From: Amoebophrya sp. A120
Taxonomy: Eukaryota > Protista > Dinoflagellata
Direction of reading: 5' to 3'
Length of the DNA stretch: 64,000 nt
Assembly: GCA_905178155.1 (NCBI GenBank)
Contig: CAJINV010000002.1
Location: 8,699,224 to 8,763,223 of the forward strand
In this document: in pieces, positions 5,001 through 53,900 of the stretch
How the letters are laid out: each line of letters starts with the position of its first letter
Numbering within the stretch: position 1 is the first letter of the stretch
Program-made: the position numbers and the translations under genes
The notes under the pieces: model-generated
The model's database searches: none
Told to the model about the DNA's origin: nothing
The model's input: only the letters and a program-made list of their open reading frames with translations

Positions 5001-8000
5001 CCGTTTTGCTGTTCGACTGGGGGCTGCTGATTTTTGCGAGATCGTCGTCGTCCACGAGTAGTTCTTCTCGTTGCAACACTCCATTAGCTGTAATGGCCGC
5101 TAAATGACGGTTAGAAGTACCAGGGCCCCTCCTGTCCGGAGGGGCGAGCCCTTGTAGTTCCTGTTCGTCTTCGCTGTTGGGTGGCATGATCCTATTGCTT
5201 TTGCTTCCCGGTCGGAGGTCAGTGGTGTTTTCTTGTCGGTGAAAGAACTGCTCTAGGTACAGCATGGTGTCCGCCACCGAGACTGACTTCATGTCCTCAT
5301 CTGTAGCACTGCCCGTCATCTGTTTACTGATATCGTCCTCTTCCTCAACAGGGGAATTGAACAACATACCATCAGTGTTGTACTTCTCCAGCTGTCCCGC
5401 AACCTCGTTCAGAAACGAGTTTTCCGCTCGTGTTTGATGCGACAGCGGATTCATTGCTTGCGCGCCAACATCCGACACTGTCAATATTGGAGCAGCTCCT
5501 TCGTGACCACGGTGAAGAGAATCTTCCGGCCGAGACAGTGCCAAACTAGCAGCGCCGTCATCTTCTACTTCCCTCAAGGCCTCCGCCCCAACTTGCTGCT
5601 GTGCTGCGAAGAATCTACTGCGAAGAAGCCCTCCTCCGCCGACCTTGCCTGTCCTCCCATCGTTCATGTTGCTTGATGCGTCGCCGACTGGACTCCATTC
5701 GGGCGTCCTGGGTGGCACGAGGGGTTCGTTTCCGCGGCTCGTAACCTCTGCTGCTGCCGATGACGAGGTCCTAATATCGGCACCGCTGTCCTTGGACGAC
5801 GAGAGTTGTAGAGTCTTGGGAATGTTGATGCTCAAAGAAGTGGAGGAAGAGTTCATGATTTCTGCCACGAGCTGCTCCGTTGTCTTCGATTTTCGCTTTT
5901 CAAATTCCCGGTCGTAAACGGTGCCTAACGCCAACTCGTTGTTGCTGTTGAAGAGATCGTAACTATCTCCTACACAATCACCAAACTGTTTCTGCGCAGG
6001 ATTTGGAGGCTGCAGGCGGTTTTCCGCACTGTTTCTTTGGAGGAAAAGCGCGCTCGCCACAGGGTTCGGATTGGTGGTCGGGGAAGCACCAAAAGGAATC
6101 AGCTCTTGCGGATCATCATCATCTTCTTGCTGCGAAAACGACTCGGCCTGCTGCTGCTCGTCGCCAAGGACTTTAGATTGTAGTTCTTCTTCCAAATTAA
6201 CTGGTGCAATCTCCAGACCAGCTCCCCTGCGACGATGCCCTCCAGGTCGTGCAGCAGTAATTTTCTCAAGCTTTCCCTTCGTTGCATCGTCGCGCTTTCG
6301 CTTTCCTCGCGTACGATGTTTCTTCGCCGCGAAGTCGGCGAGTTCCAGGTCCTTCAAGTTTTTCGTCTGACTTAGCAGTCGTAGTGGCTGAGACGAGACC
6401 TGATGAGAAGATATTCTTCTACTACCCCCCTGCGCCGGCGGGGACGGTTTGTAAATGAACTGCTCGTCGTCTGGTTCGTCTGTGTGCACAAATTCATCCT
6501 CGTTGTCAGCATGGTCGCGAAGCTGCGCAGCACGAGAACTACTCGCCTCCTCGCTGGTTGACGAAGCGATCTTATTCAGTGGAGCTGCGCTTCGTGTTCT
6601 CTGGTTCGTGTGGGATTCGTCCGGAAGTACTTCTTGCGGCTCTAGCGCGTCAACATTCTGTGTTTGACTGTCATACACCGCCAGCAAATCGTGCGACATG
6701 GTTCCTACAGCAGGAGGAACACGGTCCTCGTCCTGGTCTTCGGCCCCGGCGGGAATAGCTCTACTTGGTTGGTAGAAGTTTCTTTCATCAACATTCTCTG
6801 CCTCGCCGTCGGAGGCCGAAAAAACGTTCATTTCCGCCAAAACAGACGCGATGTTCTGAGACGCCTCGAAAATACGCTCGGGACTCTGTTCAATGTTCAT
6901 TTCTAGTTCAACAGCAGATGAACGAGTGACATCATTCGGTCGATCATCCCCATTGTGATTACCATCAGGTCCCGGGCACGGCAGCTGAATGACGCCAGCG
7001 GGAGAGCAGGACCCGCCGAGCGGCGACCAGATCGGCGTAGAAATAAAGATGTTGTCGTTGTAGCTCGTGGCGTACAGGGGTACGGGTGAGTTTGCTGCAG
7101 ATGATGTTGGACGTTGTTGACCCTGTAGTTGCTGCGCTGATCCGGCGTGCTGGTGCGGAGAAGTAGTGTCATATTGCTTCATATGCGCCGCGCTATCCCC
7201 TTCTGTTCCGGATTGGTACGTTGAAGTGATCAGGCTTACTATCGGAGGTTCTTCTTGCACCATCGTCGTCCCGGCCACGGCAGTGCCAGCAGGTTCCACG
7301 TGGGGCGAGTTCATGCGCGATTCGCTGGATTTGGTCTCGCTGAAGAACGACTTCACGATGTTTTTCGCTTCTTCGAGAATCTCAATCATGTCGTTTATGA
7401 CGTTCTCAAATGCTACACTCTCAAGTGTTCTTGCATGAGCAAAATTCCAACCAAAATCGTAATCGACACGATCAAGCTACTCCGCATGACAAATCCTCGC
7501 AAGGCCAAACAGGCTGAGAATCCGTGCCAAGTCTGTCATGCAAGACGCGCAAAGTGAGCCCTTCACTTTTGCCATTCGTGCGCCACAGATTCATGCAACA
7601 GCTGAGAATGTAACAGTTGAGAGCGCCATATCGTTGTCGTTGAATTTCTGCGACGACGAAATCTCGTCGCGCAGAAAGTCAACGGAAAAAGAATCCAGAT
7701 TTTCCATCACCCGAGAAAAGAAGCAGTCCCCTTCGGTCTCATACGCACTGGAGAGCATCCTCTTCACGGTGGACGAGACGTTGGAGGTCGGCGAAGTCGC
7801 GTCGATGTTGTGCAGACCGGCCCCGGCGAAGTGTTCTTGCAGCCAGGAGTCTGCGTCATAATTTTTGTTGAGCTGGTAGTATTGCAGATTCATTCTTTCG
7901 TCCGTGTGCTGCATATCGTTTTCGACGTAGAAATCATGACGAAAGTCATTCACCTGCAGATCGACCAACTGTTCCGCTGCGGTGGGCGATCTTATCGTGT

Positions 8001-25500: not shown

Positions 25501-28500
25501 TCGACGTGCACGACCGTCATGCGCTCCCTGCCGCGGAGGAGGTTGTTCTGGATCTATTTGATGAGACAAAAGATTGTACGGTCCCTGTTCATAGGGATAG
25601 GCATAGTCGTCCTCCAGCGTCAAGTCGTCGTGTGCAGTGCCGGCTGCTGGTGGTACCATGCCTGGAACCTGGTTGTGGGGGGGCATCGTGTTGTGAAGAT
25701 CATTGTCCCACGCGTTTATGTCCCGAAACGCCAGGTCTATTGCTTCATTCCGGTCGTCCAAAGTCGCCCGATCGTGTTCTTGTCGTGAATGGTTGTAGTT
25801 CCTTGTGGCCCATGAGGATTCATTTCCGTTGTACAACGTGGCTGCAAGTTGCTGGAACTGGCTGGAAGTTACTGCACCCGACGTCCAAGCCGGAGGAGCA
25901 ACGCCCGGACGGTTATCGGGCGCTGCGTGCGAATAAGCTGGGACGCGGTGATCCCGCATGGACGATTTCAGGAACTGCTTCTGTGCGGTATGATCCTTGG
26001 CAAGCTGCACTAACAGTTCGTAGTCCAGGCCCTTGAAGCACAGCACCGCGGTGTGCAACTTCAGAACGTGATTAAATGTGCGGGGCACACCGCTGTTCTG
26101 CTTGTCGGTGTAGGTGATGGTCACAGTCGTGATCAACTTGTCCGGAGAACAGTATGGGATATTAGTGCTCGTGTCTGCCACTGCCTCGTCTGAAACATGG
26201 TTTTCCTCATCCGGGGGCTTCTTCATTGCGGTGGTGGCCGTTGTGTCGCCAGCAGCTTTGGCTGCCACGACATGGGTCAAGGAAGAAGATGACGAGGCTC
26301 CTGCCCCGGTAGCTTTAGCTGCGCGATTCTTTACTGATTGGTATCCGGGTACACCAGGTAGTACAAACCTGCTGGCTGAACCGGGAAGATTGTTTCCGCT
26401 AGTAGAAGCAGAAAAGCCAGTGGAGGTTTTGTCCGAAAAAAAGGAATCGTCTAGCGGCTTCTACCAAACGCAAAAATGTCTGGGTCTGGAAGATTGCGAG
26501 ATTTGTCATGCTTATCTGGCATGACAAAAAAGTTTGTGATGCGTGTCCAAGAAGATACCCTTTTGCCTGTCATGCAAAAACGCAGTTTCTCATGCGGAAA
26601 ACGCAACACAAAGAAGCGCAGATATTTCTCATGCTTGGCTGTGCATTACAGTGCATTCACTATTCCCAACACAGCATTACAAGTTTCCAGACCCAGACGT
26701 TTTTGCATCTGATAGCTTCGCGGATAGGACGATGTCTTTGATCTCGAAGCAGTCCTCCTTCCCGGGCCAAAATTTCATCCAGGGGCGCACTTCGCAGAAC
26801 TCGTGCTTCGTGGGATCCAGACAGTAGGACTGAAACTTGTTGAGCACCGCGGGCTTCGGCGCGTTTTCGTTGAACCGGATGTCGTTTTTATTCAGTTTCA
26901 GATCTTGCGGGATGTCGAACGTGGTCACTTCGCACACCAGTTTCTGCAAACAGCTTCCCGGAAACGCGTCGACCTCTTGGATCGCCTCGCAGAGGTCGAG
27001 GGTGAGCAAAAACGTTCCGTGGCCGCGATCCGCCGCCACTCGGCGCGGGCCCGCGCCGCCGAACCGCTGCTCTGACTTCGTGAAGTCCGCGAGCCGCTGG
27101 CTTAGAAACTCGTTTGGCGGCGGTTGATGGAATTCCGCGAGTCTTTTATTATCGTCTTCTTCACCCAAGTCGGCTTGCTTGGCGTTCTTCTTACTGAAGT
27201 CGCTTGTTCTTTGCACTTTCGGTTTTTCAGTTTCAATTTCGAGTTCGACTTGGTCTTGGTGACTGCAGGGCGGTATAGATTTGATAGCTGTACAAACATC
27301 ATCTACACCGGCCTGCTGCGAAAGATCAGTCCCTTTTACCTCTTTCACTTCTGCAGAAGACGTTCTTCCAGTACTTTCCTCCACGACCGTTCGCTTCGTT
27401 CTCTGCGAGTCGCTCTTTTGTTGCTCGTTTTCCTTCGCCCGCGCCAGTTCTTTCATCTCTTCGTCGTGGATAAACGGTGCCTTTTGCCCCGCGACCCGTT
27501 CTGCCTCCGCCAGCATTTCCTGTTTCTTTTTCTTGTTTTTCTCCATCTCGACCAGAAGTTTCTTGTTCTGGTAGAAATACTGATTCGCGCAGTCCAACTC
27601 CGTGTTCCTGGATGAAATCACCCGGAACGCGTATGCATTGCAAAAGTAATTGCAGTCATGCAGTACAAAGCTTTTATCTACTTTTTCTTAAGATGTAAAT
27701 CCGAATTATGACGAATTCCATTTCTCATGGTGGTAAAGAAATTGAAATCTGCATATATGCAGTTACGACTAGTACTAGGACGATACTTTTGCAAAGGATA
27801 ACGCGTGCCAAATGTTGATGCGCCCGTCCAGACCCCGATTCATACTGGCGGTGTCTCGCCGTTGGAAAAGCGACAAAGCATTATTTCTACTTGATGTTGC
27901 AAGCGGCGCGGAGGTGGTCAGGTTTTGGTTTATTTTTCCACTGTCATTGATACTGTTTGACGTTGCGCTTGCGGCATAATTAGTGTTCACAATATGATCA
28001 GGCTGGTCGTCCACACGAATATTGAAGCCAAACCTGGTCTTTGTTCCGTATGACAGTGCACAACTCCCACTCCCCCTCATTTGTCATGCTTAACAGACTG
28101 CGCAGCTAAAGCCCGGGGGGGTGCGGGGTCCGAGGGGTGCACTTCTAAGCACTGCCCGGAACACCCGAACATGCCCCGCGACCGGCACAGGACCAGCAAC
28201 ACAACTAGTAATCGTCGATCACAGTTTGTCGATCACGACGTAGCTGCGAAGCCGTCCATACGCCTGGCGCCCCAAGCCCAAACCCCCGAGGAAAGGCCTC
28301 GACCACAGAAGGACCAAATATGAGCTTACGGCACGATGAAGTGGGAGCGCCTGTCTATGGACCGGATGAGGGAGCCCCCGGCTGCGAAACTGCTGGCTGG
28401 TGGACGCTAACCTGCCGTAGGTGATAGACTCACTCCAAGAACGGTTTCCGTTTCAGCGGTCGCGAAGCCGAAGGGAACAGGATGCATGTAGAAGAGCACT

Positions 28501-30076
28501 GGGGACAGGAAAGGACGAAGCACGAGTGTGATGGGCATTGCTGGAGAAAAACACCCGGATGAGATCCCGACTGCGGGAAGTCGGAGCATGAGGAGCAGCA
28601 GCGGGAGATTATCGAAACCGGACAAGACAGCTGGGCAGGACTGCTTCTCGCAGGACGACAGAGACGGCGATCGGGAATCCGGATTAACGGAAAAGCTGAT
28701 GGCTATACAGAGAAGTACCGCCGCCAGAGGAGAAGTCTTCGAGACTATCGCAGCACTGGCACTCGCACCGAAAACCGAACGCGCTACAGGCGCGCCGCGC
28801 TCGTGCGTGATCACAACAGGGATCACTTGGCGGACAGACTCTACAGGAGTCTGCCTTGGTTTCCGGGAGTGACGCCGATATCGGGACGCCGGTGGGAGAG
28901 GTGGGGCCCACTGGTTGTCGCTAGCCGCTGCCGTCCCGGAAACCAGACACAACTGCAGGTGTGCCGCACTCGTGAGTGATCTCTACAGGGATCACTTGGC
29001 GCGTAGGCTCTACAGGAGCCTACCCTGGTTTCCGGGGGTGCTGGTTTTCTGGTTGGGAAGACCGTCCGTGCCTGGTCCCTGGATGCGTCGGCTCGACGGG
29101 CTCGTTTGCTGGCTGCCAGGAGGAGATCCAACGCTTCTACCTGAAAGGGTTATTTTTCGGGAAAGGCGGGCGGGGACGGAGTTATCCGCCCCCTAAGAAC
29201 AACAGCGAGACCCTCATTTGTCATGCAAAATACCCAATCCCCTGTTTTGCTTTTGCCTCTTGGCACTGATTGCATGACAAGTTCTGGCAGCCCAAATAGC
29301 ACTACACTCCAGCGCAAATTTCTCATGCAAAACCGGCATTCTTGCTGATGCTTGTATTGCCGTTCATGCTATTGCCGTGGATGAGGGGGAGGGGGAGTTG
29401 TGCACTGTCATATTCCGTACTCACCCGCGAGAAACTGGTATATGACCCGCAGCAAATCCTCGGGAAAGTGCATGGTAATGTACACGGACTTCGCGCTTGT
29501 GCCGGATTTGTTTGCCAAAAACTCGTCTTGGGCTTTCGTCGACAGCTTTTGAAATTCTCCCAACTCAAATTGCTTCCTCTTCTCAAAACACACACCCAGT
29601 GCGTTCACCGCCATGATATTCACCATCGCCGTGGCCTTCCACTGCATTTGGTTCAGCTTTTCTTCCTTAATCTTCGTCCTTTTCTTCTCGTAATCCAGCT
29701 CATTTTCCTTCATGGCCGCCTGGACTTGCGTTTGGTCCTCCTTGTTTGCTGGAGTAGAGGACGAAAGTAGCGCCCTTTGAAACTCGAGCAGTCCCTGCTT
29801 CTTCGTTTCAAAATCATTCTTCGCCTGGAAGTAGGCATTGGAGCAGCGGCGGCTGGCTTTCTTTTGCAGCAGGAGAACGGTCTTGCTGTAGGTTTGCGGG
29901 AAATTGTTGCGACGTTCTTGGTGTGGAATACCACTGTCGCTGTCATCAGAGGTGTCCTCCTCGGGCAAAAGAGGTATTATGGGAGCCACGACGTCTTGGG
30001 AAGGTTTCGTCTGAGAGGCTGCAGTGCTGGCGGCGGCTGCAGAAATGACTGGTGGGGTTCCCTGATCGTGTTGCAT
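22589..30076 (-). CDS. Hypothetical protein (~1800 aa) with F-box-like motif; 5 exons (3 introners + 1 GT-AG intron)
   Basis: In-frame junctions after excision: LAGEYG-TKTRFG (28049-29412), NIWHA-FRVISS (27632-27800), LSAK-PLDDSF (26462-26714); canonical intron 24277-24551 (GGAG|GTAAAA...ACACAG|AT). MHFPEDLLRVIYQFL resembles an F-box. Confidence 0.75.
26462..26714. mobile_element. TIR introner, family A (253 bp, TSD GCTTC)
   Basis: Left TACCAAACGCAAAAATGTCTGGGTCTGGAA vs right rc TATCAGATGCAAAAACGTCTGGGTCTGGAA; GCTTC at 26457-26461 and 26715-26719. Confidence 0.93.
27632..27800. mobile_element. TIR introner, family B (169 bp, TSD ACGCG)
   Basis: Left TATGCATTGCAAAAGTA vs right rc TATCCTTTGCAAAAGTA; ACGCG at 27627-27631 and 27801-27805; frame restored. 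Confidence 0.9.
28090..29210. mobile_element. Nested 1121-bp GC-rich non-coding insert with 16-bp flanking direct repeat (non-autonomous retroelement-like)
   Basis: CCCTCATTTGTCATGC at 28074-28089 and 29211-29226; removal leaves a typical-size 227-bp introner; no recognisable RT/transposase ORF, no TIR or poly(A) seen. Confidence 0.8.
28760..29040. repeat. Duplicated ~105-nt multi-hairpin module with C-TACAG-G loops
   Basis: Copies ~28760-28871 and ~28930-29040; hairpins at 28780-28794, 28807-28826, 28835-28853, 28975-28996, 29003-29023; closing stem 28935-28946/29025-29036. Confidence 0.8.
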
Positions 30077-36883: not shown

Positions 36884-38111
36884 GAAACAATCTCAAACTA
36901 TTCATCGGCTGTGCACAATCTGCGAAAAAAAAATAATTAGTAAACAATGCCTAAAGTGCGGCTCAGTATCAGTAGTTGTAGTTCTAGTTCTTCTTCCCAT
37001 AAAACAAATACAACGTCGTAAACAAGTCATAGTTTTTTGTTTATTCAAATTCAATCTGTGTCCTTGGAAACGAAGATACAGTGGCGGCAAGTCTTCAAAG
37101 GGTCAATCATTGCGCGTTGCAATAAACAAAACTTTTTTAGAAGCTATCCATCTCTAGAAATACTTTTTCCCGTAAAATACAAACAAGAGCTCGAAACAAG
37201 GATGACAAAAGATCAAATTTGAATTTATTCACAAGATGGCCGGGTAACAGAGTTACAGGGTGAAGTAGGTTGGGCGGTGGTGGAAAGGCGACAAAATTAC
37301 AAATACATGAAGTGATTTTTTCCCATAATCATCGAAACACACTGACGGTGCAAAGCAAACTTCCTTGTCGGGACAATCAGCACCAGCAGGAGCAAATACG
37401 ATTCGCATAAGCAACGATAGTTGTCACGAACCACATCGAACTTTGCTATCGCAATTTTGACATACGAGCTACATCTTTAGATTTGTATAGCAGTCCAAGT
37501 GTAAAATCGTTTCATAATCGTAAACTTCTTCGACTCATGGCTTTGGGACTACGCCATCGATGCTCTTGCTTTGTTGAGTCCGATGCATGTTCCCACAACC
37601 ACCTACGCCTTGCATGGGAAAACGGGTACGAGTAGTCGTCTAGCAATTCTTTCACGAGAAATCGCTTCTTTGAAGTTCTTTAGAATTTGCTGGGTGGAAA
37701 CAAGCGCACTCCTCTCTTTGTGTGCAAAGTAAAGCTTGTGGCTCCTTCTTCCCTGCAGCAAGCGGCTGCTCAGGGCCGGGGCCGCATTCATCTTTTACTA
37801 TTTCACTATTACTATATTCCTAGCATTACAACAGCTGGTAGCATTCCTATCGTCTGCCTAATGCGCATTCGGTCCTGAGCTTCTACAAAACAACATACCT
37901 GCAGCTACTTTTACATAAGTTGCAAATAGGGAACTTTGTCGTTAAATTTGTTTTTCTTGTCACCAACAGCGAGCACCATGGGAGTAACTACACCGTTACA
38001 GTCACAGACTTCAATATCATGCCAGTACAACTGACCAAGATCAAAAGTACTATCTTGTAAAGTTCTAGCTCTGCACGTCCTCGACAAGAACGTGCTTTGT
38101 TCCCTTCTGTT

Positions 38112-41100
38112 TCAGTTGTACTGCTGATACGGGTTGTAGACCCCGCCGACACCGCCGCCCGCAGCAGCAGTCGACGGAGTGTTCCCGTTGCCCCACGCGT
38201 TGGCATTTCCCTGTTGGTGTTGCCCGCGCCAGTTGTTGCCCCCACCCACATATCAACTGTAAAAATGTCTGGGTCGGGAAGAATCCAACTTGTGTGTCAT
38301 GCTGATTTTGGATTCTAAAAAAATCTGTATTGCATGAGCAGCAAAGAGAGTCCAAAATTTGCTACACGGAAAGAGCATTTGTCATGCGGTATAGGCATCA
38401 GGAAGCCCTCACAAAATCTGTGATGCTAGGGCATGCATCACAGACATCAGGAGTCATGCAAAATGTGCATTACAAATCTCGCAATCTCCCAGACCCAGAC
38501 ATTTTTACATTTGATACCACATGCATGGGCTTCGTGCCGTACTTGGCCGCATAGACGGAAGAGTCGTAATCACTGAAGCCCGGCGCCGCGCCCGGAGCAC
38601 GGGAGAAATTGTTATTGGAGGAAGTAGTGTTCGGCGCTCCTGCAGACGGGTTGATATTATCCCCACCGTGGTTGTACAAAGAAGTCGTAATGTTCATGTT
38701 GCTCACCTGCTGCAGATTGTTTCCAGGAGTCGTGCCTGTGGAAGTACCGCGCCAGTTAGAGCCACTGTTGTTCTGCTGCTGACTCGTCAGAGCGGCCGAG
38801 TTCGCGGCGGCCCCGGCCGCGTTCAGTGCTGCAGCAGTAGTACCGGTTTGATTGCTCATGGTACTCGTGTTGTTGTTCATCGTCCCATCATTCTTGTTCA
38901 TCATCCCGCCCGAATTATTGTTTTTGTAGTGGTTGTGGTTTTTCATGTTCATCATCGACGAGGTATTGTAATAATTGTAGTTGGACTGAGAACTACCGTG
39001 CTTGTTGTTCCCATAGTTGAAGTTGTTGTAGGTGTTGTTCATTCCACCCTGATTCGCTCCCATCGTGGTCGTTCCGTATGCGCCGTATTGATGTTGGCCC
39101 ATCTTATTCATCCCGTACGAGGACCCGTGATGACCCCCGGCGGCACCGTACGCGGCCCCATGGTGACCACCACCAAGGCCCGCGGCCAAACCGCCCATTC
39201 CGTAGCCGCTCGCGTTCGACATGCCGTGGGTGTAAGCGCCGTGCCCGCCGTACCCAGCGTTAGCCCCGTTGTAGTCCTGGTTGCGCCGCTCGCACTTCCA
39301 GCACGGATCCTTATCGTAGCCCGTGGCGTGCAAATCCAGCTTCACCTGCTTGTCCTCCTGAACGAGAGACAAATTCTTCTCGGTCTTAAGTATGAAAGGA
39401 GAGAAGTGGAAGTACTTAATGTGTCTAGTCACTTTTATGTCTGCTTCAAAATGTTGCTGCTCTTCTTGCTGCATCTACTTCTACCGTGCTAAAAACCGCG
39501 ATCCTGCATCATGCTTGCTACATGTGAAGCATCAACATCAGCACACTGTAATAAGTAGATCAAATTCAAAAAAAAACGACTTTGTCTCATTGCTGCACAC
39601 GACCAGCAAGACAGACAGCACGAGGACAAACTCTCGATATTCTATTCTCCCTTCCTTTTCATACTCAATCCGCTCGTCGGGTGCAGGCCATTGGGCGACA
39701 ACTGCCAGCAATCCTGGACTACTTTGCCTGATAAAGTATTTGAGAGTTTCACACCTTTTTTCAAAGTGAGTGTATCCGTATGATCATACATGTAATGCGA
39801 AATAAACAGGAGAACATACTCACGCGGCTCTGTGATCATGCTGTTGCTGTAGCTGTAGTAACACTAACAGTATGGTCCACCCTGATAATAAAAAATCAAC
39901 TATGGTCATCTTTCTCAGTACTGAAGTTTTCCACGTCGTGCATGCCGAAGTACTGCGGGAACCCGTGCTTGGCGTGCAGCCCGTTCAATTCCAACAGCTT
40001 CAAGTGCCCCAGGCACCCGCGCAGGCCCTCGCACTCCAGGTTGTGCAGCTCGTTGAAGATCCTGGTCACGTTGCACCACTGGTGGAAAAGCTCCGGGATG
40101 GTTTTCTCGATGTCGGTGACGGGGCCGAAAGCGGATCCGGTGGCTATGGCATTCTCAAACGTTACATTCTCAACTGTTACCTGATTTGTGATGCAAAGTT
40201 ACCGTAAGCCACCACAGGATCAAGCTGCTTCGCATGACAAATTCCCGAAGCAGGGCTATACAGCATCTAAATCTGTGCGGAATTCGTAATGCTATAGGTG
40301 CAACCCTCTCCCTTTGGCTTTTGCTATTTTTGCATCGCAAATTCATGGAACAGTTGAGAGTGTAACAATTGAGAACGACATAGTGGTCGTTCCGATGTTC
40401 GAGTTAACGGACGACGCTTGGTCCCCGTTATTGGACCCCTCGTCCGACCCAGCGCTGCTGTTGGACCCCTGGTCCGACGTGGCGATCGCGCGGTTGATCA
40501 GGTTGGGCAGCAGGGTGCGCAGGTCGTAGTTGCCGGACGTGCACACCAGCAGCGGGTGCTCCACCTCGTCGCCGGCCTCTTCTTCCACCATCGCGGCGGT
40601 CTCCGATTTCAGCAAAAGCTCCTTATCGTCATCCTGACCCTTGTCCGAGCGCGGCGGGGTGGAACCAGTATCGAGGAGGACCTCAAGTTTGATGATGTTG
40701 GTTTATTGTTCCAGGCGAAATAAATCCAATTCACCTTTCATCCTGATGTTCATGTTGCACTACAGATTACATTTCTGCTCTCTCTGCAGTAAATCTTCCA
40801 TCACAAAGCCACATCCAGATGTGATGACATGATTGTTTTTCTCGTTCCAATCTGAATTAATACCTTGTCCTCGCCGGTGACCACGGGAATCTTCTGGGCC
40901 TTGCCATACAGACGAAAGCCAAAGCCTTTCAACCACGCGTCAAGCTCCACCAACATCTTCATCAGGGGAACCGTATGCATTTTTGCAAAACCCGTATCGC
41001 ACTAGTGTGAAGTGCATGCCAAATCTTTCCACAAGCAAAAATGGTTCAGCTCATCATGATGGAGATTCAGGCACTATCTAAGTAAGCGCATCTGTCATGC

Positions 41101-44100
41101 TGCAAGACAAGTACAACTGCACAAAACTGTAAGTACTCAGAGTCATGCTATGATGATGTTTTTGCACAGGATAAACCGCCTGCGGCACCGAAGCGCGATT
41201 TTTGGAACGGGGATTCAAGATCCAACGGTGGAAACGACCCAGTTCCTTGCCGCATCGATTAATCAGGATACCTTTAATGATAATTCGGTATGGTGGAAAC
41301 AAATGAATGCGAAGGTGGTACTAGCTTCCAGGTATTTTTCTTCTCGTGCTTTTTCCAGTGAAGCGGAACTTACAACAAGCAGAGAAAAAAGACTATACAG
41401 GGAAATTCCGTAATTCCATGCTTCGGAGAACCGTGCAAATCCAGAATCATCAACGCGTACTTGGAAGGCTTCCCGACCCGAGACATGAACTGCGTCTTCT
41501 GGCTCGCGAACCTGATTTCCATTTATCGAGTATCAAAATCAATGCAGCAATACAGGCTAATCCTAACCAATAAAGAATAAACAAGTTGTAAGTAAGCTAC
41601 GTATAAAGTGACGGAAGGCACAACATATCATGCCAGTCCTCCTCGAGAGCATGCAATCTTGCAAACTCCTAAAGCCCCCTAAGCAACATGGCAACATCCA
41701 ATAAATCATCTTCTTGCAACAGAAGATTATCATACCGCACGCCCAACTGGTCTTGCACCTGGCGTTTCAAATTCATGTCGTCCGGTTTCAGCCACTGGGC
41801 CCGCACCCACTCCGCGTGCTCCACGTCGTGACTCAGAGTGCACCACCGGTACGCACAGCAGCCGGAGTTAAAGTAGGGACAGGGGGTCATCTTCGCGGGC
41901 CCGTTCGATTCCTTGAACTCCTTGTCCTTGGAAATCATATGGATTGTAAAAATGTCTGGGTCTGGAAACTTGTGATGCTGGGTGGCGTATCACGAGGAGG
42001 CCACAAGTGCTGGCTCAGCATGACAAGCTTCTGAGCTTCTAGGTGTTGCCTACTCTGCATGACAAACAGCGTTTCTGCATGACAGAAAATTGGGGCTCTT
42101 GGGTAATGTGCATGACAAATTTACGAGTCATGTGAGACAAGCATGACAAACTTGCATTCTTCCAGACCCAGACATTTTTACAGTTGATAAATCAGGACCT
42201 TGTACGAGGTGTGAAACGGGTGTTGCTGGTGGTGGTTGCCGTGGTGCATGCCACCCGCGGCGCCACCCCTATCCTGTGCAAAAGTATCGTAGTCGTACTA
42301 ATTGCAAACATGCATGACAAATCTCCTTCCTAAAGTAAAACAGCATTACAAATTCCACTTTTCTTCTTGCCAAAATTTGTGATGCAATTTATACTAGTCC
42401 GATATTTTTGCAATGCATAACCCCCAGCGGAAAACAACGAGTATTTCGACGCCACGTCTCCCGCCCCGGCAGCCCCCGCGAGCGCGTGGTGCAGCAACTG
42501 CTGCTGCGCCGCGTGCAGCTGCAGGTGCTTCAGCTGCGCGGCGGCCAGGTGCTGCTGGTTCAGCTGCTGCGCAAAGTTGTTCATGGTAGTTTGGTGGTGC
42601 GCCGCCTGCTGTAATTGTTGTCCCCCGGTGGCCGTACCCGTGAGGTTACTGGCCGGACCACCTCCGGTCGTGGTCGTAGCAGCCGGACCATTTGTCGCAC
42701 CACGGGCGTGATTTCCACCGGAATTCGCGACGGCAGACGCGGGGCACCGCTTCATCTTCAGCGGGGAGATCGTCAGATACTCGTCGTCATCTTCAGGCTT
42801 GATGGTGCTTCCAGTGGAAGTCACGTTGTTCAACAGCTCATCGTTGGAAGAGATTTTGTCGAAGATGCTCTGCGCGGAAGTCTTGTCTTCCACCAGCACG
42901 CCGCAATCCACCACGACATTCGGCGCACCGCTTTGCGGCTATGCGTTGCAAAATAATCGAGTTCTAGAATACTTTGAAACTACTGCAAGCCTAGAATACA
43001 AATGTTTTCTGCTCATATCAAAAAGTGCAATGTGACATGCTAGATCAGCTAGAGCATTTAGATTCGTAAACATGCACGATGATAATTGCAAGAAGACTCA
43101 GTACAATTACGTCGATACTTTTGCGCATGATAGCATCTGCGAGGAGGAAATTTCCGGCGAGTAGCTGACCGTCGGCGAGTCCGCAGTATCAAATGCAAAT
43201 ATGTCTTAGTCTGGAATAAAGCTCTAATGGTAGCCTGCGACTGATGCGCGCACTGCAGTACGCAGCCAAGCATGCCAAGTTTTCTTTGCGCTGGTATGCG
43301 TTGCGTATTTTGCATGGCAGACTTCATGTTTGATCCATGACAGTTATTGATCCAAGTAGATCATGACCAGCATGACAGATCTTGCGATCTTCCCGACTTG
43401 GACCTATTTGCACCGGTGGATACGCACCCTCGATCTGCAACTGGTCTTCCTGGTAGGAGCTAGTGGTCACGGAATTCGAAGCATTGGTTTTCGCGGAGGT
43501 CGACGCCTTGGAGTAGTTTTTGGTCGGAACTGTAGCACCTCCCGCGGTACCAGCATTGCCAGTGGCCGCGCCGTGTTGGGGCAACAGTGGCACCGGCGGC
43601 TCGTATCCGCTGCTGATCAGGGGGTTCGCCGGCGTCGCCGGCGGGTACACGGTGGAATCGTAGCCCGTCACGGAGTGTTGGTCGTAGGGAGAACCACTCG
43701 CACAACTGCCCGGGTAGGCTTGCTGCAAAAATTGCTGCAGTTGCTGGGGGTCCTGCTGCAGTAAGTGCTCCATGCCGCCGGTGGACGCCGTACGGGTCGG
43801 GTCCGAGGGGTCCACAACTCCCTGCATCATGTTCGCCAGAAAATTGTCCTGAGCAAGGTTGCCTTGTGGTCCACCCGACAAACCCGCCGCGTTCGGAAAT
43901 CCAGCGGCCATCATGCTGCTCTGCGCGGCCGCGGCGGCAGCCGCAGCGTCCAGCGAAGCGTTGCCCGTCGACGCACCAAAACCGGTTGCAGCCGCCGCGG
44001 CCCCGGCTCCCGCCGCCGCACCGCCGGCCAGCAGGGCCGGGTTCATCATCCGCAACTGGTTCAACCGCATCAACTGCAGCTGCAAATACGGCGGTAACTG

Positions 44101-45344: not shown

Positions 45345-48073
45345 TCAAAACAGTCGCCACACCGAGTCTCTCGACTGTCGTCGCTTGAATTTGTAGTAGA
45401 GCTCGCAGGGGCGACGTAGAACTAAGACCACTGCAAGCCAAATCAACACCAAAACCCACCGGGGCCAATGGAGCTCGACATCCGGTTGTGGCTTGGGATT
45501 CGCGTAGAAAGCTAGGCTGTCGGATATTGTCTCTTGCTGAAGGAGGGCCTGCTCATTGGTGGAAACGCTTTCGTCGTGTCCGATTAGCATGCTAGAACTT
45601 CTGCTTGCGTTGATGTTGATATTTCCTGCTAATACTTCCAGTAAGTACTTCTGATGCCGCTTTTTGTAGACGTACACCTTCGCACCCGTCGCTAAAACTC
45701 CGAGTAACATGTAGTGGAACACGTAGAAGAACAGGGGCACGGACCCGAAACAGAAGAGAAAGGTGGTCAACTCCGCCTTGCACTGCTTGAAGATTTGCCT
45801 CTCCTCGAGGCAAAACCGCCCAAAATTTCCCAGGATGTGAGTGATGAGGTGCAGCACGTTCGTGAAGGACTTCAGCAAGCATTTGGGGAAAAAGCACCAG
45901 CGGCTGCCGATGGACACGTGATCGAGTTCTTCTTGCCCTGTTGACGTGGCTCCTCCTGCCGTGTAGAAATTATCGTTGTATATCTCGTCGTTCTGGTAGT
46001 AGTTGTTCGCATCCAGATGGTCCCCCGTCCTGACATGCAAGTCGTCCGTCACCGCGACAACTTCAACACTTTGCAGATTGGTATTGTTTCTTTGTGCGTC
46101 CACCACACCAGAAGGCTGCCGAGCTTCCGCCTGTCCGGTCATGACGAGGTGCTCCCTGGCGTCGAGAAACGGCATTCGATTGGCTGATGACGCGGTTGAG
46201 GAGACGACCGAGTCCAGTGTCAGTTGCTGCGATTCGTTCCCGGAAGATGTTGAACTGGAAGAGTTGCTAGAAGAGGTCGTTGTATCGAGCACATTCTGTG
46301 GCTGTTTTCTCCTCTTTTCCACTTGGTGCTTCCCGCTGTCGTAGCAAAACAGCCACCACAAAACGAAATTCACCCCTGCAGTGAACAACAAATACGCCAG
46401 ATCCGGCGGGTATTTGCAGAACGTGAACATGCCGCGGAAGGGACTGTCGTACTCCCCGCGCGGGTAGCCGCGAAAGTTGAAGTACTTCTCCAAATCCCAC
46501 AACTCCGCTTTCTCACTCCCGAAAATTTGTTTCACAATCGCGTTGATCCGGAATCTGACGAAGAAAAAAACGGTCAGCAGCTGTAGTCCGATGATCGCGA
46601 GCAGGGATTCCAGGTAGAAAAACCGCCCGCTGCCGCTCGCGTTCGTATTTCGGCTGCTCCGCCCGTTCCGGAGGATGCGCAGCGAGGTTTGGCTGGAGCT
46701 GCTGGTGCCGACGTAGGTGTCGTTGCTGGCCGTGTCAAAGTAGATGCCCAGGAACTTCTTCTGTTGAAAAAGCACGCCGATACACATCCCGAGAAACACC
46801 AACGAAACCCAGGGGAACAGCGGGTACGCGACGACGCCGAAGCTCGTGCGCCCGGGGAGTACCAGAAACCGCAACAAAATCTCCTGAAACGTCTCCGCCG
46901 GGTAGAACGCCTTGGGCCACGCCGAGTCTCCGTCGCTCGGGTTGCCGTTTTGCGCCTCCACGATGAGGTAAGAGGAGGTGGCGAGCACGGAGACCGCGAG
47001 GAGAACCATCAGCAAAACGCCCGCTTTTGTCCCGTTCTTGTTCGTCCCCGTCGCGACCAGGGGCGCGAACAAGCCGGCGAGCATCATGGACAAGCCCAGG
47101 CCGACCAGCACCTGCCAAATGCCGATGAGCGGGAACCACTTCAGCTATCAAATGTAAAAGTGTCTGGGTCTGGAAGAGTCATGCTGTTTTTGCATGACAA
47201 AGAAGGTCTGGCATGGAAGCTCTAGCATAACAGGTTTCGAGAGGCTTCCGCAATGCCGAACCCGCATGCCAAATCCCCCATTTTGGTGACACAAAGTGGG
47301 CAGCTTTTGCTACCTTTGCATGAGAGATTTTTCTGTGTTCTAAAATGCGCATCACAAGTTGTTCGGATCCTTCGCGACCCAGACATTTTTGCAGTCCATA
47401 TCAGCAGGACCGGGTCAATGTTCGGGCCGAAAGGCGAGGGGATGTCGCGCACACCGAGTACGTAGTAGAAAACCCACATGTATCCCGCCTCGCAGATGTT
47501 GATCAACCGGCCGCACAGGATGAGAATCAGGCCGCGAATCAAAAAGTATTTCCGCACATACCCCTCCATGGTATTCACGGCAAAGTCCGGCATCGTGCCC
47601 CGCTCCAGCGTGCTCTTCGTCCACAGAAACATGCCGATGCCCATGGTCAAGAAAAACCCCGGGGCGCAGACGTGAGAGACAAACCGGCAGAAAAACTCGA
47701 CGCGGCTGTGGTCGTAGGTTTTGAACTTCCCGCTCCACATCTCGCCACCGGCGTCCTCCGTGTGCTTCGTGAGCAAAAATTCCTGCGTGTGGTCCCAGGC
47801 CATCAATAACATGATCAAGCCGCGAAACACGTCCATGGACCAAATGCGAGCCGTTGAGGAACGCTCGGCGGTGGTGGAGGTGCGGGTGAGAAAAAATGGA
47901 GGCGCTTGTGGCTGTTGCGTCGGTGCACCAGGCAGCAGGGACGAGGGTGCTGGTGGGGTAGCTTGTTCCGTATCGGTCGGAAGAGCTTGTTGTGTAGGAG
48001 TGATGCGCGTGCTTCCGGCATCGATAGGGGTACTAGCGGCCCTACCATCTCCACTGCGGTTCTGCGAGTTCAT
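45345..48073 (-). CDS. DUF1624/HGSNAT-catalytic-like multi-pass membrane acyltransferase (~822 aa), 2 exons
   Basis: RIWSMDVFRGLIMLLMAWDH, RFVSHVCAPGFFLTMGIG, YPLFPW, KYPPDLAY, FGSVPLFFYVFH; exons joined by excising 47146-47400 (DPVLL-KWFPLIGIWQVL). Confidence 0.85.
47146..47400. mobile_element. TIR introner, family A (255 bp, TSD TCAGC)
   Basis: TATCAAATGTAAAAGTGTCTGGGTCTGGAAG / rc TATGGACTGCAAAAATGTCTGGGTCGCGAAG; TCAGC at 47141-47145 and 47401-47405. Confidence 0.93.
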
Positions 48074-50904
48074 TTTAGTCAAGATGACGATTGATGTCGG
48101 TGATCTTTAGGACTAGATAATTATTATCATACTTTCTTCACTTGAGATAAGAGAGGCTATGGGCTCGGACATGAGAAGTTCTCCAGGTTGCGGGAGGCAC
48201 AACCAGTAAGAGACAAAAGTTCGGGCAGTTTGGAAGCACGCGGTTTTACTTCTCGAACTAAATACGGGTAGCATTCAACATTTTCTTCGCTTCTTTTTTT
48301 AGAATTGGGGGCTGTTCTGCGTTGCGACGTCACAACGCGGCGGTTGGAAACTTCTCAGCTTCAAGTAGAACAGACGAAGATAATAAATCCGATACTGACC
48401 TCTTAACTCACAGACACAGGCTGACGCTGATGTGGCCGCTTACATATAGCACCGGCTCTCGTCTCGTGCTCATCGGTCCCCAAAGTCATACATATAGAAG
48501 TTGGATCGCAATAAATCGCTCGACAGAGTTTTGCCTTGTACTAGTTGACCTCGCTCGGCAGAGAGAAAAAGAACGCCGACACGCACGGCGGTCGGGTTCT
48601 TCTTGCTGTGAAAATCTACTTTCACGGAACATACAAATCACTACACTCGTGTTAGTATTGCAGAACTGCATCGCGCTTGTGTGCCGTCTTTGGAACAAAA
48701 TTTCACAAAATGTGGCAGAGGACACGATGCGGATGCCCAAACCACAATGCCACACATGAAGAACATCATCACGGCCAGCTCTTTAATTTGCCAATACCGA
48801 TGTGGACCCAACGAAAGGCCGCGCCCTCTTCTGGTAATATGGACGTCTACTTCACTTCTCTGCTTTCATTTCTTGCCGAGGCGGGGCCATGCAGTCCCTG
48901 TTCAATCATCCGGTTTGTGCTAGAGGAAGTCGAAGATCGATACCCCTTAGCTCCGTTCTCTTTTTCATCATACTTAAGCGTATGCGTATGACAGCAGTAT
49001 CCGTTAGTACTCTGCTAGTCGAGCAGTTGTTCTCTATTCGGACGGACGAGTAACTACTTCTCGGCTTGTTGTACTACAGTCGAACCCTACTCCTCTGAAA
49101 ACGGAGCGTGAGGCTCGATCTTCAAATGTATCTTGATTTTTACACAGGGCTCGGGTGTCGTCGAGGTTGTTTCGAAAATTGGTGCAAACAAGACAGCATG
49201 CGTACGGACCTTGAAAACTAGAAATCGTGGACATTCATCTTTATCTTTGGTGTTTAGGGGTCTTTTACTAAAAGAAAAAAGAACCAAACAGAAAAAGACG
49301 TATATTATCATATTTTTTTTTCCTCATTGGGTTACTGCCACATCACACACACATACTCACGTTCCTTTCCGAAATATTACATTCGTAGAGTACATTGTTC
49401 CCGCCGTACTTAACAGATCATGACTTCTACCTAGGTAACATGCGAAGTGTCAATTTCTAATATTTTTCTACAAGTACACTTTCGAGACAAGAATCAAGAT
49501 GCTCGTGAAATTGACGTTGTAACGGAAATATTTGGAACAAGAAGAACGCTTTTTGTGCACATCTTTCGTAAGTCTAAGTTTGTTCGTCGTTCGTACTTGC
49601 ATTTTTCCGTGAAACCGAGAGATAGTGGCAGAGCTGAGTTTGCGTGACATGAAATATGAAATAAACCTAAAAGAAGTGAGAGTTACATCATTAGCAAAGG
49701 TCCGTCCTTGTAGAGCTCATTGCAACAAGTCAAAAGCCATGCATAGACTCGACGTCCCTCACACTAGAAGACGATAATCGAACTTCTTTTCTGCCTTACT
49801 GCAGGGCGCACAAATATTATTGGGGGATATCTAACTAAATCGTTTACCTTTTCGGTTGTTTTCCGTTGTGCATCTAGTCGGCAACTGCCACGACCTCCCG
49901 GGATAAACTAGACAAAAGTCGCTCTTGTTCCCTGCGTCATTCTTCACATTCGCACCCCGTCGCGGCGTACCTCGCGGCGCCCGGCGAAGGAGAAAATGCA
50001 AACACAACATCAGATATACAAAAGTCATTTTTTTTGCACAGGACTACAACGTCAAGATCTTGTGGCCCTACATCACGTGTACGTTCCTTGCTTCATTCAA
50101 CGCCGCGGCTTACGCGTTGGATACCAAATACCTACAACGAAACGGAACGGCTCTAGTCAAGTTGACAGAAATGACCTGTATTGGCTTTATCAGAAACGAA
50201 AAATCAATCAACTGTTTTGATTTTGGATTCAGAAATTTGATTGTAGTAAATTCATAGCTTTATTTTCGAAGTAAAAGTTGTCAGAAGTATGAGTATCGTA
50301 TCACAAACAGAATTCGCGAGAAGCTGCCAACGCGTCTTGGCCGCTTGGAGTAAAGTGTCAAACTAGTATCAGAAGCAAAAGTAATCAGTTTTTCGTGCCC
50401 ATTGTACTTGTTATATATGATTTGTATCTAATGAAGTGATCTTTTTATTTTTGTACATGATAATGTTGAAAAAGACAAGCGCCACCCTGGATGACTGCTC
50501 GTGTGGTGTGCGTTCCGCTGAGAAAACACAAAGAATTTAAGAATGAAACATCTGCAAAAATCGAAGAAAGGTTCTTTTTGGACACCAAATCCAGTCGCTT
50601 CAAAAAGAACTGTGTTCTCGATTCCAGCAGGCTGAGTGTCGAAAATGCAGAAAAACTTTTCGAATACCAAATGAGCAACAACTTTTAAAATGGAAAACGC
50701 AACTAATGTTGAGACGTCTAGCAAAACTTCCGTGCGCCAGCACTCATTTCTAGCTAGAGCCCCTTGCTATGTTCTTTATCAGTTTCAGTATATGTAAGTA
50801 GAACTAGAAGTAGAAGTGGCATATTTCTACAATTTTCATTACAGTCAAAGTCAATTCTTTGTTTCATATGAGTTTTCACGAGGCCCCGTCGTCGGTTCTT
50901 AACA

Positions 50905-53900
50905 CTATCCACCCACGGCACCCTCGTCCACCCATTGCTTCAAGTTCATGGCGAGTGACATCACTTCCATTGCCGGTAGCAACTCCAAATACCCCGCATA
51001 CATCAAAATGAAGCTTCGTTCTTCCTCCGTCTCACCGAACTTATTGACAGTAGTACCAATTTCCGGTTCATCATCATGACCAGCATGATTCTCTGCTTGT
51101 TGCATTGGCGTCCGTGGATTTGTAGTGGGCAGCACGACTGGGTCTTGTTCGTCAGTGGGACGTTCGTCAGTGGGACGACCACCCGTAAAATCTGCCACTA
51201 AGCCTTCTTGACTCTGCTCGTGAAGCCGCTTCTGATGTTGAAATGCGTGAGACGAGTAGTGGTCGTCTGTCGGAAACATCAGGTTCGTTCCGGTTAGATT
51301 GTTGAAAATAAACGGCGTGTCCTCGCAAATATCCTCGAGGTACCGAGCCCGCGGACGTGGTACAGTTGTGGTTAACAGTGCCCCAGAGGAGTTCTTTGCT
51401 GCAGAAGTACTAGCCAGTGGAGTCGAAGAGATCGCATGTAAGGGTGCTTGCCGCCTGCTCAAAAAGCCTACTTTCTTCGCGGATGCACCTGGCTGCAGAC
51501 TGTCGCCGCTGGGTAGTTCGGCGCCATCGCTCATGTGTTGCATTTCGGGAAGGTTTCCTACCGTCCTGCTTTTGCCAGAACTTGTTATCGTGAGCAAAAA
51601 TCCCTCCTCCCCATATCGAAAAGGCACGTCTAAGAAAATTTGTTATGCTCATTTGTGACCTCAAATCATCTCTGTCTTGCAGGACCGAAACTACACAGGC
51701 TCCGCCGCATTCTGCAGGCGGTTTGTGATGCTGTTGGCCCTACAGACTAGGCGTCTGCCATGCTTACCGCCTAGCAGAAAACCTCTCTACTCAGGCTTAG
51801 TATAGGCCTGCAGTCCTCTCCAGCAAGACAAATCTGATTTGTGTACGCAAATCCAGCATCAGAAACTTCGTTTTGATATGGGGAGGGGGAATTTTTCCTT
51901 TTGATACTTGTTCCCTTGACTTCTGGTGAAAGACCGCTGTTGTAAATTCTTTCATCCACCTCCCGCTCCCTCGAAAAAGAAGAGAGAAAGTCGCGTTTCG
52001 GCAGCTTCTCCTGCAGATCATACTAGCATCCAGAGAAAAAACCTAGCACGCCGCATTCTTTTTTTGTATAATGATGATGTACCCAACTGTGGGGTCTATA
52101 CATGAAATTTAGAGTTCTGTCTCGTATGGCCGATGAAAAACCCTGCCATGGCCTCCCAATGACAGATTTTCTGCCTCTTATAGTTTTGCGTTTTTGCGTT
52201 GCTCAGCTAGCTTTTTTCTGTGCGATAAGTAGACTTCGTTCATGATTGTACGTGCCAACGACAGCTCCTTCGCAACTTCCGACTGTGTCAGCCCCACCCC
52301 CGGTGGCTGCACTGGTGCTTGTGCTGCTTCAGCTTCGACGCCGAGCGATGTTTCATTTGCACTACCACTTCCTGGTTGTATTTGCGTTTGGTCTACCGAT
52401 CCCGCGGCCTCGGAGCCTGCGTTCGCGCGGGGCGTAATTCTTGCGTTCCCAAAGGACGAAACGGCCATTTGTGCTTCTGTTCGATGATCGGAAGAACCAG
52501 AGATCACCGGCGCGTGCGGCGGGGCTACTTCTCCGTTTTGTGCATGTGCACGACCCTCCGCTTCTGTCCGACCGAGAGAACTCGAGGGCTGCACCTGTTC
52601 CGCGCTCGCGGCGGAGGAATATACTCGGGGAGAACTACCTGCGACAGGCGAGGTCGTATTCCGCCAGCCCAATGCCGCCTGTTCCCACGCAGGGAGCAGA
52701 GGGTGTTGCTGCTCACGCTCATACCGTGCCGGAGGCGGCAGTCCGCTTTCGTCGCCGAGGTCAAACCGCATCAGGAAGAGATCGCATGCGTCTCTCCAGG
52801 CGTGATCCTCGTGCGGAGCACGGGTTCCCGGCTGGCTCATGTCCAGTGGCCGGACGAAAATCGGGCCGTCATCATAAAAATCTTCGTCGTCCGTTTCGTC
52901 ATTTTCCTCGCTTGTCTCCACCTCTGCGATCGGCGAGTGTGTCCTGGTGAAGTAATGCCCTAATGGCGTCATTCTCATTGTCTCGACGTCATCCAGATGA
53001 GGACTTGCAACGGTTCCATTATGCTCTTCAGCATCAACATCGTCGTGCTTCTTCAGCCGTACACACTTGGCGTGCATCATCGCATTCATCGTAGACATTA
53101 CCCCAGAAGATGCGCCTCCTGGATGTCGAGAACTTGGTGGTGCACCAGAAGTACTGCCAGAACTTGAAGTACTGCCTGCTGCGACATCATCAATGCGACC
53201 ACTGGTGCTGTTGCTGGCCGGCAGCACGCCGGGCGAGCCAAAGACAGGTCCACCGTGCTGAGCGGGATAATTTCTTGTAGTTCCGAAAGTGGTCTCTCCG
53301 TAGCACCCGTTCGAAACTATATATGTCGGACGGGTTGAGGTTGAGGTTGACACTGGCGTTGACGATGCTGGCCCCGCAGGTGACGGCGCACTGCTGGCCG
53401 TACTTGCGCCGAAAGGTGAAGAAGTAGCGTTCGCCGGGGGACAATTATACGCGTCGGCTGTAGACTTACGCGCGTAGTGTTTGGCCGCGTAGGCTTCAAA
53501 GAGGATTTTTGAAATGGGTAGCTTCTCCGCGTCGAGAAAGAGCTGCACCTGTTCGTACAACGTCGGCCCTGTCCACCCCTCCAGCGGGGGAACGAGGCCC
53601 GGGGGAAAAGCGGACTTCTTGCGCAATTCCTCGGACTTTTGCTGCATCTCCTTGGTGAGATAGAACTCCGCCGCGTTCTGCAACTTCTGCAACAGGTACT
53701 CCTGCTTTTGCAGAATTTGCTTCTCCGACTCTGCTTTCCACGGTGATGACGAAAAGGTTGTCGAACTGTTCCTGTCAGTACGACCAGCAGCAGCAGGTCC
53801 AGGTGCTCCAGGAACAAATACAGCTGCGCTATCTTCTTTACCTTTTCGCTTGTCGTAATTGTTTCGGAAAAAGTAGTCCGAGAAGAGCACCGTCTGTTTC

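Follow-up and report, generated by a model that had tools for sequence, protein, structure and literature searches.

A duplicated hairpin array in a probable nested mobile insert within a non-canonical intron of Amoebophrya sp. A120

We analyzed a 64-kb stretch of the genome of the dinoflagellate Amoebophrya sp. A120 (64,000 nucleotides of contig CAJINV010000002.1; hereafter, the window), focusing on two adjacent cloverleaf-like modules whose hairpins carry a repeated loop word. The modules had been picked out by an earlier reading of the letters alone, made without database searches (hereafter, the sequence-only reading). We found this hairpin array to be a real and apparently selected structure, the loops of which are fixed while the stems change and stay paired. 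The array probably sits in a mobile insert nested in an intron of a known type, the non-canonical introner, and we consider it likely that this insert is a separate mobile element whose structure was under selection.

Architecture and covariation of the hairpin array

Copy 1 of the cloverleaf occupies positions 28768-28866 and copy 2 positions 28935-29036. The two are 83% identical over 88 nt, with their starts offset by 169 nt, and they differ in 19 of 99 alignment columns. A basal stem in copy 1 (28768-28778 with 28856-28866) encloses arms at 28780-28794, 28807-28826, and 28835-28853, and a perfect 12-bp inverted repeat in copy 2 (28935-28946 with 29025-29036) encloses arms at 28948-28963, 28975-28996, and 29003-29023. 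The five hairpins quoted in the sequence-only reading, as well as the copy 2 basal stem, were present where it had placed them, but some of its details needed correction. The copy 1 basal stem exists, but its 5′ arm is 28768-28778, not 28769-28779. The proposed TGCAG variant arm also exists, but it extends from 28948 to 28963 and its predicted pairing is weak (probability of 0.00 to 0.39). The 1-nt bulge of the middle arm, which had been described as conserved, keeps its position but not its base, which is A in one copy and T in the other. An extra bulge is found in the first arm of copy 2, but not in that of copy 1.

Each module combines three unrelated stems with one common loop, and the loops of all six arms in both copies read C-[TA][AG]CAG-G. 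Hairpins capped by C[TA][AG]CAGG occur at 10 sites on the two strands of the 64-kb window, 6 of them within the 281 bases of the array; the cluster probability of about 2e-6 is flattering, since the pattern was taken from the array itself. The other four sites lie outside the introner spans described below.

Folding of both strands, proposed earlier as a check, gave structures better than chance, with z scores of -3.5 to -6.2 for RNA and -3.5 to -6.7 for DNA, and none of 200 shuffles was as good in any of the eight folds (RNA and DNA, both strands). Five of the six arms reached a pairing probability of at least 0.5 in every fold, the first arm of copy 2 being the one that failed. In the DNA folds, five of the six reached at least 0.86, and both cloverleafs were closed on both strands. 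The predicted closure of the cloverleafs was 0.63 and 0.64 in minus-strand RNA and 0.60 to 0.84 in DNA.

The stems had been said to differ between the copies yet to stay paired, and indeed only one of the 30 base pairs is lost to the 12 stem substitutions. In the four helices of the two-copy alignment, 23 pairs are identical, 5 are compensatory, 1 has become a wobble, and 1 is broken; RNAalifold recovered the same five compensatory pairs. The enclosing basal stem, whose arms are about 80 nt apart, covaries too. When the 12 stem substitutions were placed at random, at least five compensatory pairs arose in 0.5 to 1.5 per 100,000 trials, a figure to be read with the bias that the covariation comes from two sequences only and that the structure was defined on the same two. 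A two-row shuffle control matched the observed covariation in 15 of 500 shuffles. All 12 stem substitutions are transitions, compared with 3 of the 7 unpaired ones (Fisher p = 0.009), as expected if change passes through wobble pairs. The five compensatory pairs and the uniform transitions support the earlier proposal that selection has acted on a structure formed by a single strand, its loops being conserved. Loops that are fixed on stems that change but remain paired point to a protein reading the loop sequence on a single-stranded molecule.

An introner intron and the insert nested in it

The array lies within a larger outer element at 28049-29412 (1,364 bp), which has TAT...ATA terminal inverted repeats and is flanked by a 5-bp target-site duplication, TTCCG, at 28044-28048 and 29413-29417 (both read on the plus strand). 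The left (28049-28080, plus strand) and right (29381-29412, minus strand) inverted repeats are 32 nt each, start with TAT, and are perfect over 20 nt and complementary at 31 of 32 positions overall. Together with one target copy, the element makes up an intron of 1,369 nt in a gene on the minus strand. Its removal together with one duplication joins two minus-strand frames, and a public protein of 1,803 amino acids with the source label Amoebophrya sp. A120 (here P0001) is 100% identical to the joined frames. P0001 corresponds to five exact exons, 30076-29414, 28044-27802, 27627-26716, 26457-24553, and 24277-22592. The first of these (29414-30076, minus strand, amino acids 1 to 221) lies upstream of the intron and the second (27802-28044, minus strand, amino acids 222 to 302) downstream; the jump between them covers 1,364 + 5 nt and omits the outer element exactly. 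No related protein besides P0001 was found among the similar-length or longer proteins searched. The intron status rests on the P0001 gene model; A120 gene models are derived from transcript and protein alignments (PMC7789003).

None of the six equivalent border placements gives GT...AG splice ends. The TAT inverted repeats, the 5-bp duplication, the non-canonical ends, and the exact skipping by P0001 place the outer element, as a new member, in the known class of non-canonical introner introns. The sequence-only reading had assumed a mobile-element setting without noticing the inverted repeats, the target duplications, or the annotated intron, all of which support it. A Tc1/mariner reading with a TA-only target duplication was rejected because of the frameshift that it entails; with the 5-bp duplication, P0001 is obtained. 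The outer element is present as a single copy in the window.

Introners of A120 have been described as having inverted repeats starting with TAT, direct repeats of 3 to 5 nt, and non-canonical ends (PMC7789003). The outer element resembles them in its TAT inverted repeat, its 5-nt border repeat, its lack of GT-AG, and its exact removal in the gene model. Unlike them, it is 1,369 nt long, compared with the 40 to 1000 bp analyzed in that study, it contains a nested 1.1-kb insert with a multi-hairpin array, and it has no AAA after TAT and seven further nucleotides (PMC7789003). Since only introns of 40 to 1000 bp were analyzed there, this intron is absent from that set. Several neighboring introners fit the pattern of TAT, 7 nt, and at least three A residues, which the outer element (TAT GACAGTG, then CAC) does not; the pattern is a described consensus of family motifs and not a requirement for every introner.

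Inside the outer element, a 1,121-bp insert at 28090-29210 (left border ± ~3 nt) has a GC content of 0.60, compared with 0.49 in the remaining introner. It is flanked on the plus strand by a 16-bp exact direct repeat at 28074-28089 and 29211-29226. The left copy of this repeat overlaps the end of the left terminal inverted repeat, taking in its last 7 nt, and contains TGTCATG; it matches another introner three bases further, hence the uncertainty in the left border. Without the insert, the introner would be 227 bp long with a GC content of 0.49 and three copies of the introner motif T[GC]T[CG]ATG, its neighbors having 150 to 321 bp, GC contents of 0.33 to 0.47, and zero to six motifs, while the insert has one motif in 1,121 bp. 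Because the 16-bp repeat contains this motif, we checked for a chance match with 43 motif pairs within nine other introners, in which the common stretch was at most 11 nt. The 16-bp repeat is presumably the target duplication of a secondary insertion. Both duplications match exactly and the inverted repeats almost perfectly, yet the two modules have diverged to the extent given above, so that the divergence of the modules likely arose in the lineage of the insert before its arrival at the present site.

Other features of the insert were also observed. A GC-rich 9-bp hairpin at 29172-29193, 17 nt from the right end, is fully paired on the minus strand via one G-U pair, but its z score of -1.9 is not significant. 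AACAG, also a variant of the loop word, occurs near both ends (28092-28096 and 29201-29205), possibly by chance. A long irregular hairpin at 28150-28260 carries a GATCAC repeat, the same word being found in the middle arms of the cloverleafs.

When the window was scanned for TA...TA elements flanked by a 5-bp duplication, 20 candidates emerged, comprising the outer element, ten of 150 to 321 bp, and nine longer or weaker ones that were set aside as probable chance matches. We took the ten short elements, nine with exact duplications and one with a mismatch, as introners (7396-7630, 26462-26714, 27632-27800, 37641-37849, 38251-38516, 40145-40382, 41938-42189, 42270-42419, 47146-47400, and 51586-51906); two of them are likewise skipped by P0001. 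Most contain the T[GC]T[CG]ATG motif, up to six times each and in either orientation, making it a candidate binding site for the introner transposase or a splicing factor. The introners starting at 26462, 38251, 41938, and 47146 have a longer sub-terminal word in common. Intron 4 of the P0001 gene (24278-24552) is not among the TA...TA candidates. The introner at 47146-47400 interrupts a minus-strand membrane-protein gene (45345-48106) with a weak match to the HGSNAT catalytic domain (E = 1e-4).

Coding content of the insert and searches for its relatives

The insert has a weak coding-like frame on the plus strand (28090-28872) with three in-frame stops, possibly the decayed end of an open reading frame (ORF). 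Upstream of the modules, the plus frame carries a host-like codon signal (p = 0.01 over 28090-28766); as a control, two held-out host exons gave p ≤ 0.001. One viral match to the insert ORF was rejected as the antisense of an unrelated gene. We found no HUH, recombinase, or integrase domain in the insert and no reverse transcriptase among the 14 other window proteins scanned.

In line with the earlier statement that the structure belongs to no named RNA family, Rfam gave no match at gathering score over the window. Ranked by E value over 27900-29600, it gave four weak, unrelated matches (best E = 0.59) and no U1. U1, CsrB, iron-responsive, Smaug, and Roquin elements were considered and dropped because their loop or loop position was unsuited. 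The bacterial sponge RNAs CsrB and RsmZ have many hairpins with a repeated CAGG-containing word and a GGA in the loop. Unlike in these RNAs, GGA is absent from both first arms of the array and runs into the stem in the other four, and there is no Rfam match.

ARAGORN predicted no tRNA gene, and patterns for spliced leaders and telomere templates gave nothing convincing. A descriptor of a hepatitis delta virus (HDV)-like core had no match, and a hammerhead descriptor found one imperfect word for which stems I and III could not be seen by eye. The sequence CCGGATGAG followed by CGAAAC occurs twice (28362-28390 and 28555-28620) and resembles a hammerhead core with one base changed; stems I and III were not seen at either site, and Rfam was silent on both. 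The earlier idea of self-cleavage or a circular RNA thus found no support from Rfam or the ribozyme descriptors.

Exact patterns of the array had no match in viral contigs, in metagenomes (with a 24-base pattern), or in prokaryote genomes. An 18-base pattern of the middle arm gave 111 single matches in metagenomes, and in no case did another loop hairpin lie within 250 nt. Many of these have common flanks resembling a single conserved bacterial coding stretch in antisense, which we take to be perhaps ribosomal protein L11. Scans for three loops at the spacing of the array, covering 3 of 64 viral parts and 27 of 64 prokaryote parts, returned 125 viral and 121 prokaryote loci. The best of these 246 loci (16 by folding and 14 by stem count) were rejected as tandem or Gly-Pro-Thr-Gly-type repeats, and blastn of all 246 against the insert gave no alignment at E = 0.001. 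Phages and plasmids had no match, and a scan for sigma-70 promoters is without value for a eukaryote. The absence of relatives says little about copy number, since the material searched is for the most part prokaryotic or viral and the A120 genome was covered by the 64-kb window only. Neither the insert nor the loop array was found described in Rfam or in the literature within reach, which excluded most subscription papers and figures, and the insert might sit in repeat libraries as an unclassified repeat. Three motifs of the window had no match in the supplements of PMC12130899, files 13 and 14 aside and with long cells covered in part.

Origin of the insert and what it may mean

Our preferred account, held tentatively and somewhat short of an even chance, is that the insert arose by retroposition, as a non-autonomous element with loops that bind the protein of a partner. 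Such an element would have been copied through RNA into an ordinary introner, and the host gene model removes both as one intron. The cloverleafs would be the protein-recognition signal for copying the element, and the 16-bp repeat would be the target duplication left by target-primed reverse transcription. The sense strand would be the plus strand, running from the decayed coding-like frame through the structured part to the end. The reverse transcriptase or an RNA-binding protein of an autonomous partner would read the stem as a shape and the C-[UA][AG]CAG-G loop as a sequence, with the six loops allowing multivalent binding, and the insertion would be tolerated because the introner ends still direct splicing.

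We favor retroposition on the following grounds. Non-long terminal repeat (non-LTR) insertions have flanking target duplications of variable length (PMC9977147). The proteins of stringent long interspersed elements (LINEs) bind the 3′ stem generically and the loop specifically, and partner short interspersed elements (SINEs) are moved thereby (PMC4176376). A120 contains non-LTR retrotransposons (PMC7789003), and for two short A120 introner families, fam3 and fam9, supplement rows list reverse-transcriptase domains and 16- to 24-kb alignments (PMC12130899), which we read as retroelements nested in introners. This mode of recognition fits the covarying stems and fixed loops of the array, and the plus-strand coding-like signal upstream of the modules also speaks for this account. 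The insert resembles the stringent LINE/SINE pairs ZfL2 and UnaL2 in a stem that would serve as shape, a loop that would serve as sequence, its presumed movement in trans as the non-autonomous partner, and a long presumed target duplication (PMC4176376), the last being 16 bp and exact in the single copy seen. In shape alone, the closest match to the array is SL5 of the coronavirus 5′ untranslated region, a four-way junction with repeated arm loops and a suggested packaging role; unlike the array, SL5 is viral RNA with the loop UUYCGU and no sequence relation, making this an analogy and not a kinship (PMC12513883). The sequence-only reading had proposed a trans-acting mobilization or packaging protein as the ligand of the loops. 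We likewise infer that such a protein may bind them; our searches found no partner, second copy, or homologue. A bolder reading, which we regard as rather unlikely, is a family of non-autonomous elements parasitizing introners, which would insert at the conserved TGTCATG, so that each new copy is spliced out of the host mRNA, and be recognized via the six-loop array, for which no retroelement is described to have a counterpart; the loop-bound protein might then even be a reader of non-canonical introns or of their transposon ends.

Several observations weigh against retroposition. ZfL2 and UnaL2 have one tail hairpin, whereas here six loops are set in two three-armed junctions (PMC4176376), and about 175 nt separate the modules from the plus-strand end of the insert. 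Unlike described LINE/SINE pairs, the insert has no tail repeat, RNA polymerase III (Pol III) boxes, or identified partner (PMC4176376): neither end has a tail of poly(A) or of tandem repeats, consensus patterns detected neither of the Pol III boxes (A and B), and no ribozyme was found with Rfam or with our own hammerhead and HDV-like descriptors. No reverse transcriptase or other domain was detected in its six frames (best Pfam E = 0.12), and its ORF had no relatives in PHROGs (best E = 0.09), PDB, the ESM Atlas, or a protein database covering longer proteins. The coding signal is weak, and the sub-segment that carries it was picked post hoc (p = 0.029 for 28492-28766 and 0.18 for 28090-28491). 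Folding of the plus strand as RNA predicts cross-pairing between the copies (0.79 and 0.75), the 3′ arm of copy 1 joining the 5′ arm of copy 2 to close the spacer as an alternative hairpin at 28857-28945, while self-closure of the cloverleafs reaches only 0.20 and 0.14. The hairpin at 28150-28260 is likewise stronger on the minus strand (z of -3.1 to -4.1, compared with -1.1 to -2.2 on the plus strand). The array folds about equally well as DNA, and the half-changed pairs are split between the strands, one being a wobble on the plus strand and the other on the minus strand. Finally, one copy of the insert was observed, which makes a variable target duplication a prediction.

A route through single-stranded DNA, which we judge unlikely, has in its favor that the insert lacks a tail, that the modules are internal, and that they fold equally well as DNA. 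The hairpins would then act as DNA in the hands of an HUH endonuclease, as in Replitrons, or in a tyrosine-recombinase circle, the loops being bound by the transposase and the 16-bp repeat being a terminal or core repeat. The closure of both cloverleafs on both strands in the DNA folds fits this route. [quoted passage not shown] The insert is like Replitron-N1 and other HUH-mobilized elements in being about 1 kb and non-coding, with direct repeats at its ends, and in hairpins of the sort recognized on single-stranded DNA (PMC10288648). However, the one described Replitron hairpin is single and terminal, whereas the six here are internal; the insert has no trace of Rep, and its repeat resembles the target sequence (PMC10288648). 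The 16-bp repeat is present as a terminal direct repeat, but it overlaps the introner's own end, and the 7 nt of the introner's inverted repeat in it suit a copied target better than an element end. A Crypton was rejected because its terminal repeats are 4 to 6 bp (PMC3212892) instead of 16 bp. DIRS elements leave no duplication (PMC3266345), whereas one is present here, and a DIRS1-like element was rejected for this and because no inverted repeat linking the insert ends was found among the 25 longest of 72. The lack of an HUH or recombinase domain also speaks against this route. It is still less probable that there was no nesting and that the 1,364 bp are one larger Ginger-like element, with the hairpins a parental relic and the 16-bp repeat an internal duplication of the left end. 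Larger A120 introner families of about 0.6 to 1.6 kb do exist, including family 38 (PMC12130899), and the insert does have a coding-like frame. The outer element is like Ginger-like family 38 in its 5-bp target duplication and TA/TA termini; unlike it, the family, compared by description only, is about 810 bp long with Copia/Gypsy-like ORFs, none of which are found here (PMC12130899). Moreover, the sharp change in GC content and motif density coincides with the 16-bp repeats, and removal of the insert leaves a typical 227-bp introner; the published family 172 has 214 to 227 bp and 32-bp inverted repeats, a match in size only (PMC12130899). Families 38 and 172, compared by their listed features, are leads only. 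In addition, a cut-and-paste DNA transposon has no need for a single-stranded structure, and no integrase trace was found.

Two further explanations were considered. The structure could be maintained by the host, to bind a pre-mRNA factor through minus-strand loops reading C-CUGUA-G, to compact this unusually long intron, or as an intronic non-coding RNA. The gene is transcribed from the strand whose RNA gives two closed cloverleafs, in most arms the last two letters of the loop word are AG whichever strand is read, and the splicing route of these introns is unknown, U1 not having been found in the lineage (PMC7789003). We nevertheless find this quite improbable, since splicing appears to have no need of the array: all ten short introners lack it, including the two also skipped by P0001. 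The insertion also looks young, while the modules have diverged, likely before arrival, and no match to Rfam, U1 included, was found. Least probable, in our assessment, is a neutral origin by local duplication, with template switching copying mutations between palindrome arms and no function involved. Template switching can yield paired changes without selection. The covariation rests on two sequences on which the structure was also defined, and the first arm of copy 2 is weak. On the other hand, the three unrelated stems per module have the same loop, and the basal stem covaries across its distant arms. Copying would carry both kinds of change, whereas all stem changes are transitions and 4 of the 7 unpaired changes are transversions.

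The mobility and splicing of the tens of thousands of non-canonical introns of Amoebophrya remain to be explained. Exact skipping of a 1.37-kb intron with 1.1 kb of other DNA inside it would mean that the cut is set by the ends and by nothing else. With its fixed loop word and covarying arms, the structure matches no curated RNA family and offers a precise bait for the mobilizing protein. Should the insert be a lone dead copy, its interest is that of a fossil. If instead it homes to the introner motif, we would be looking at a mobile element hidden in the splice-out of another element.

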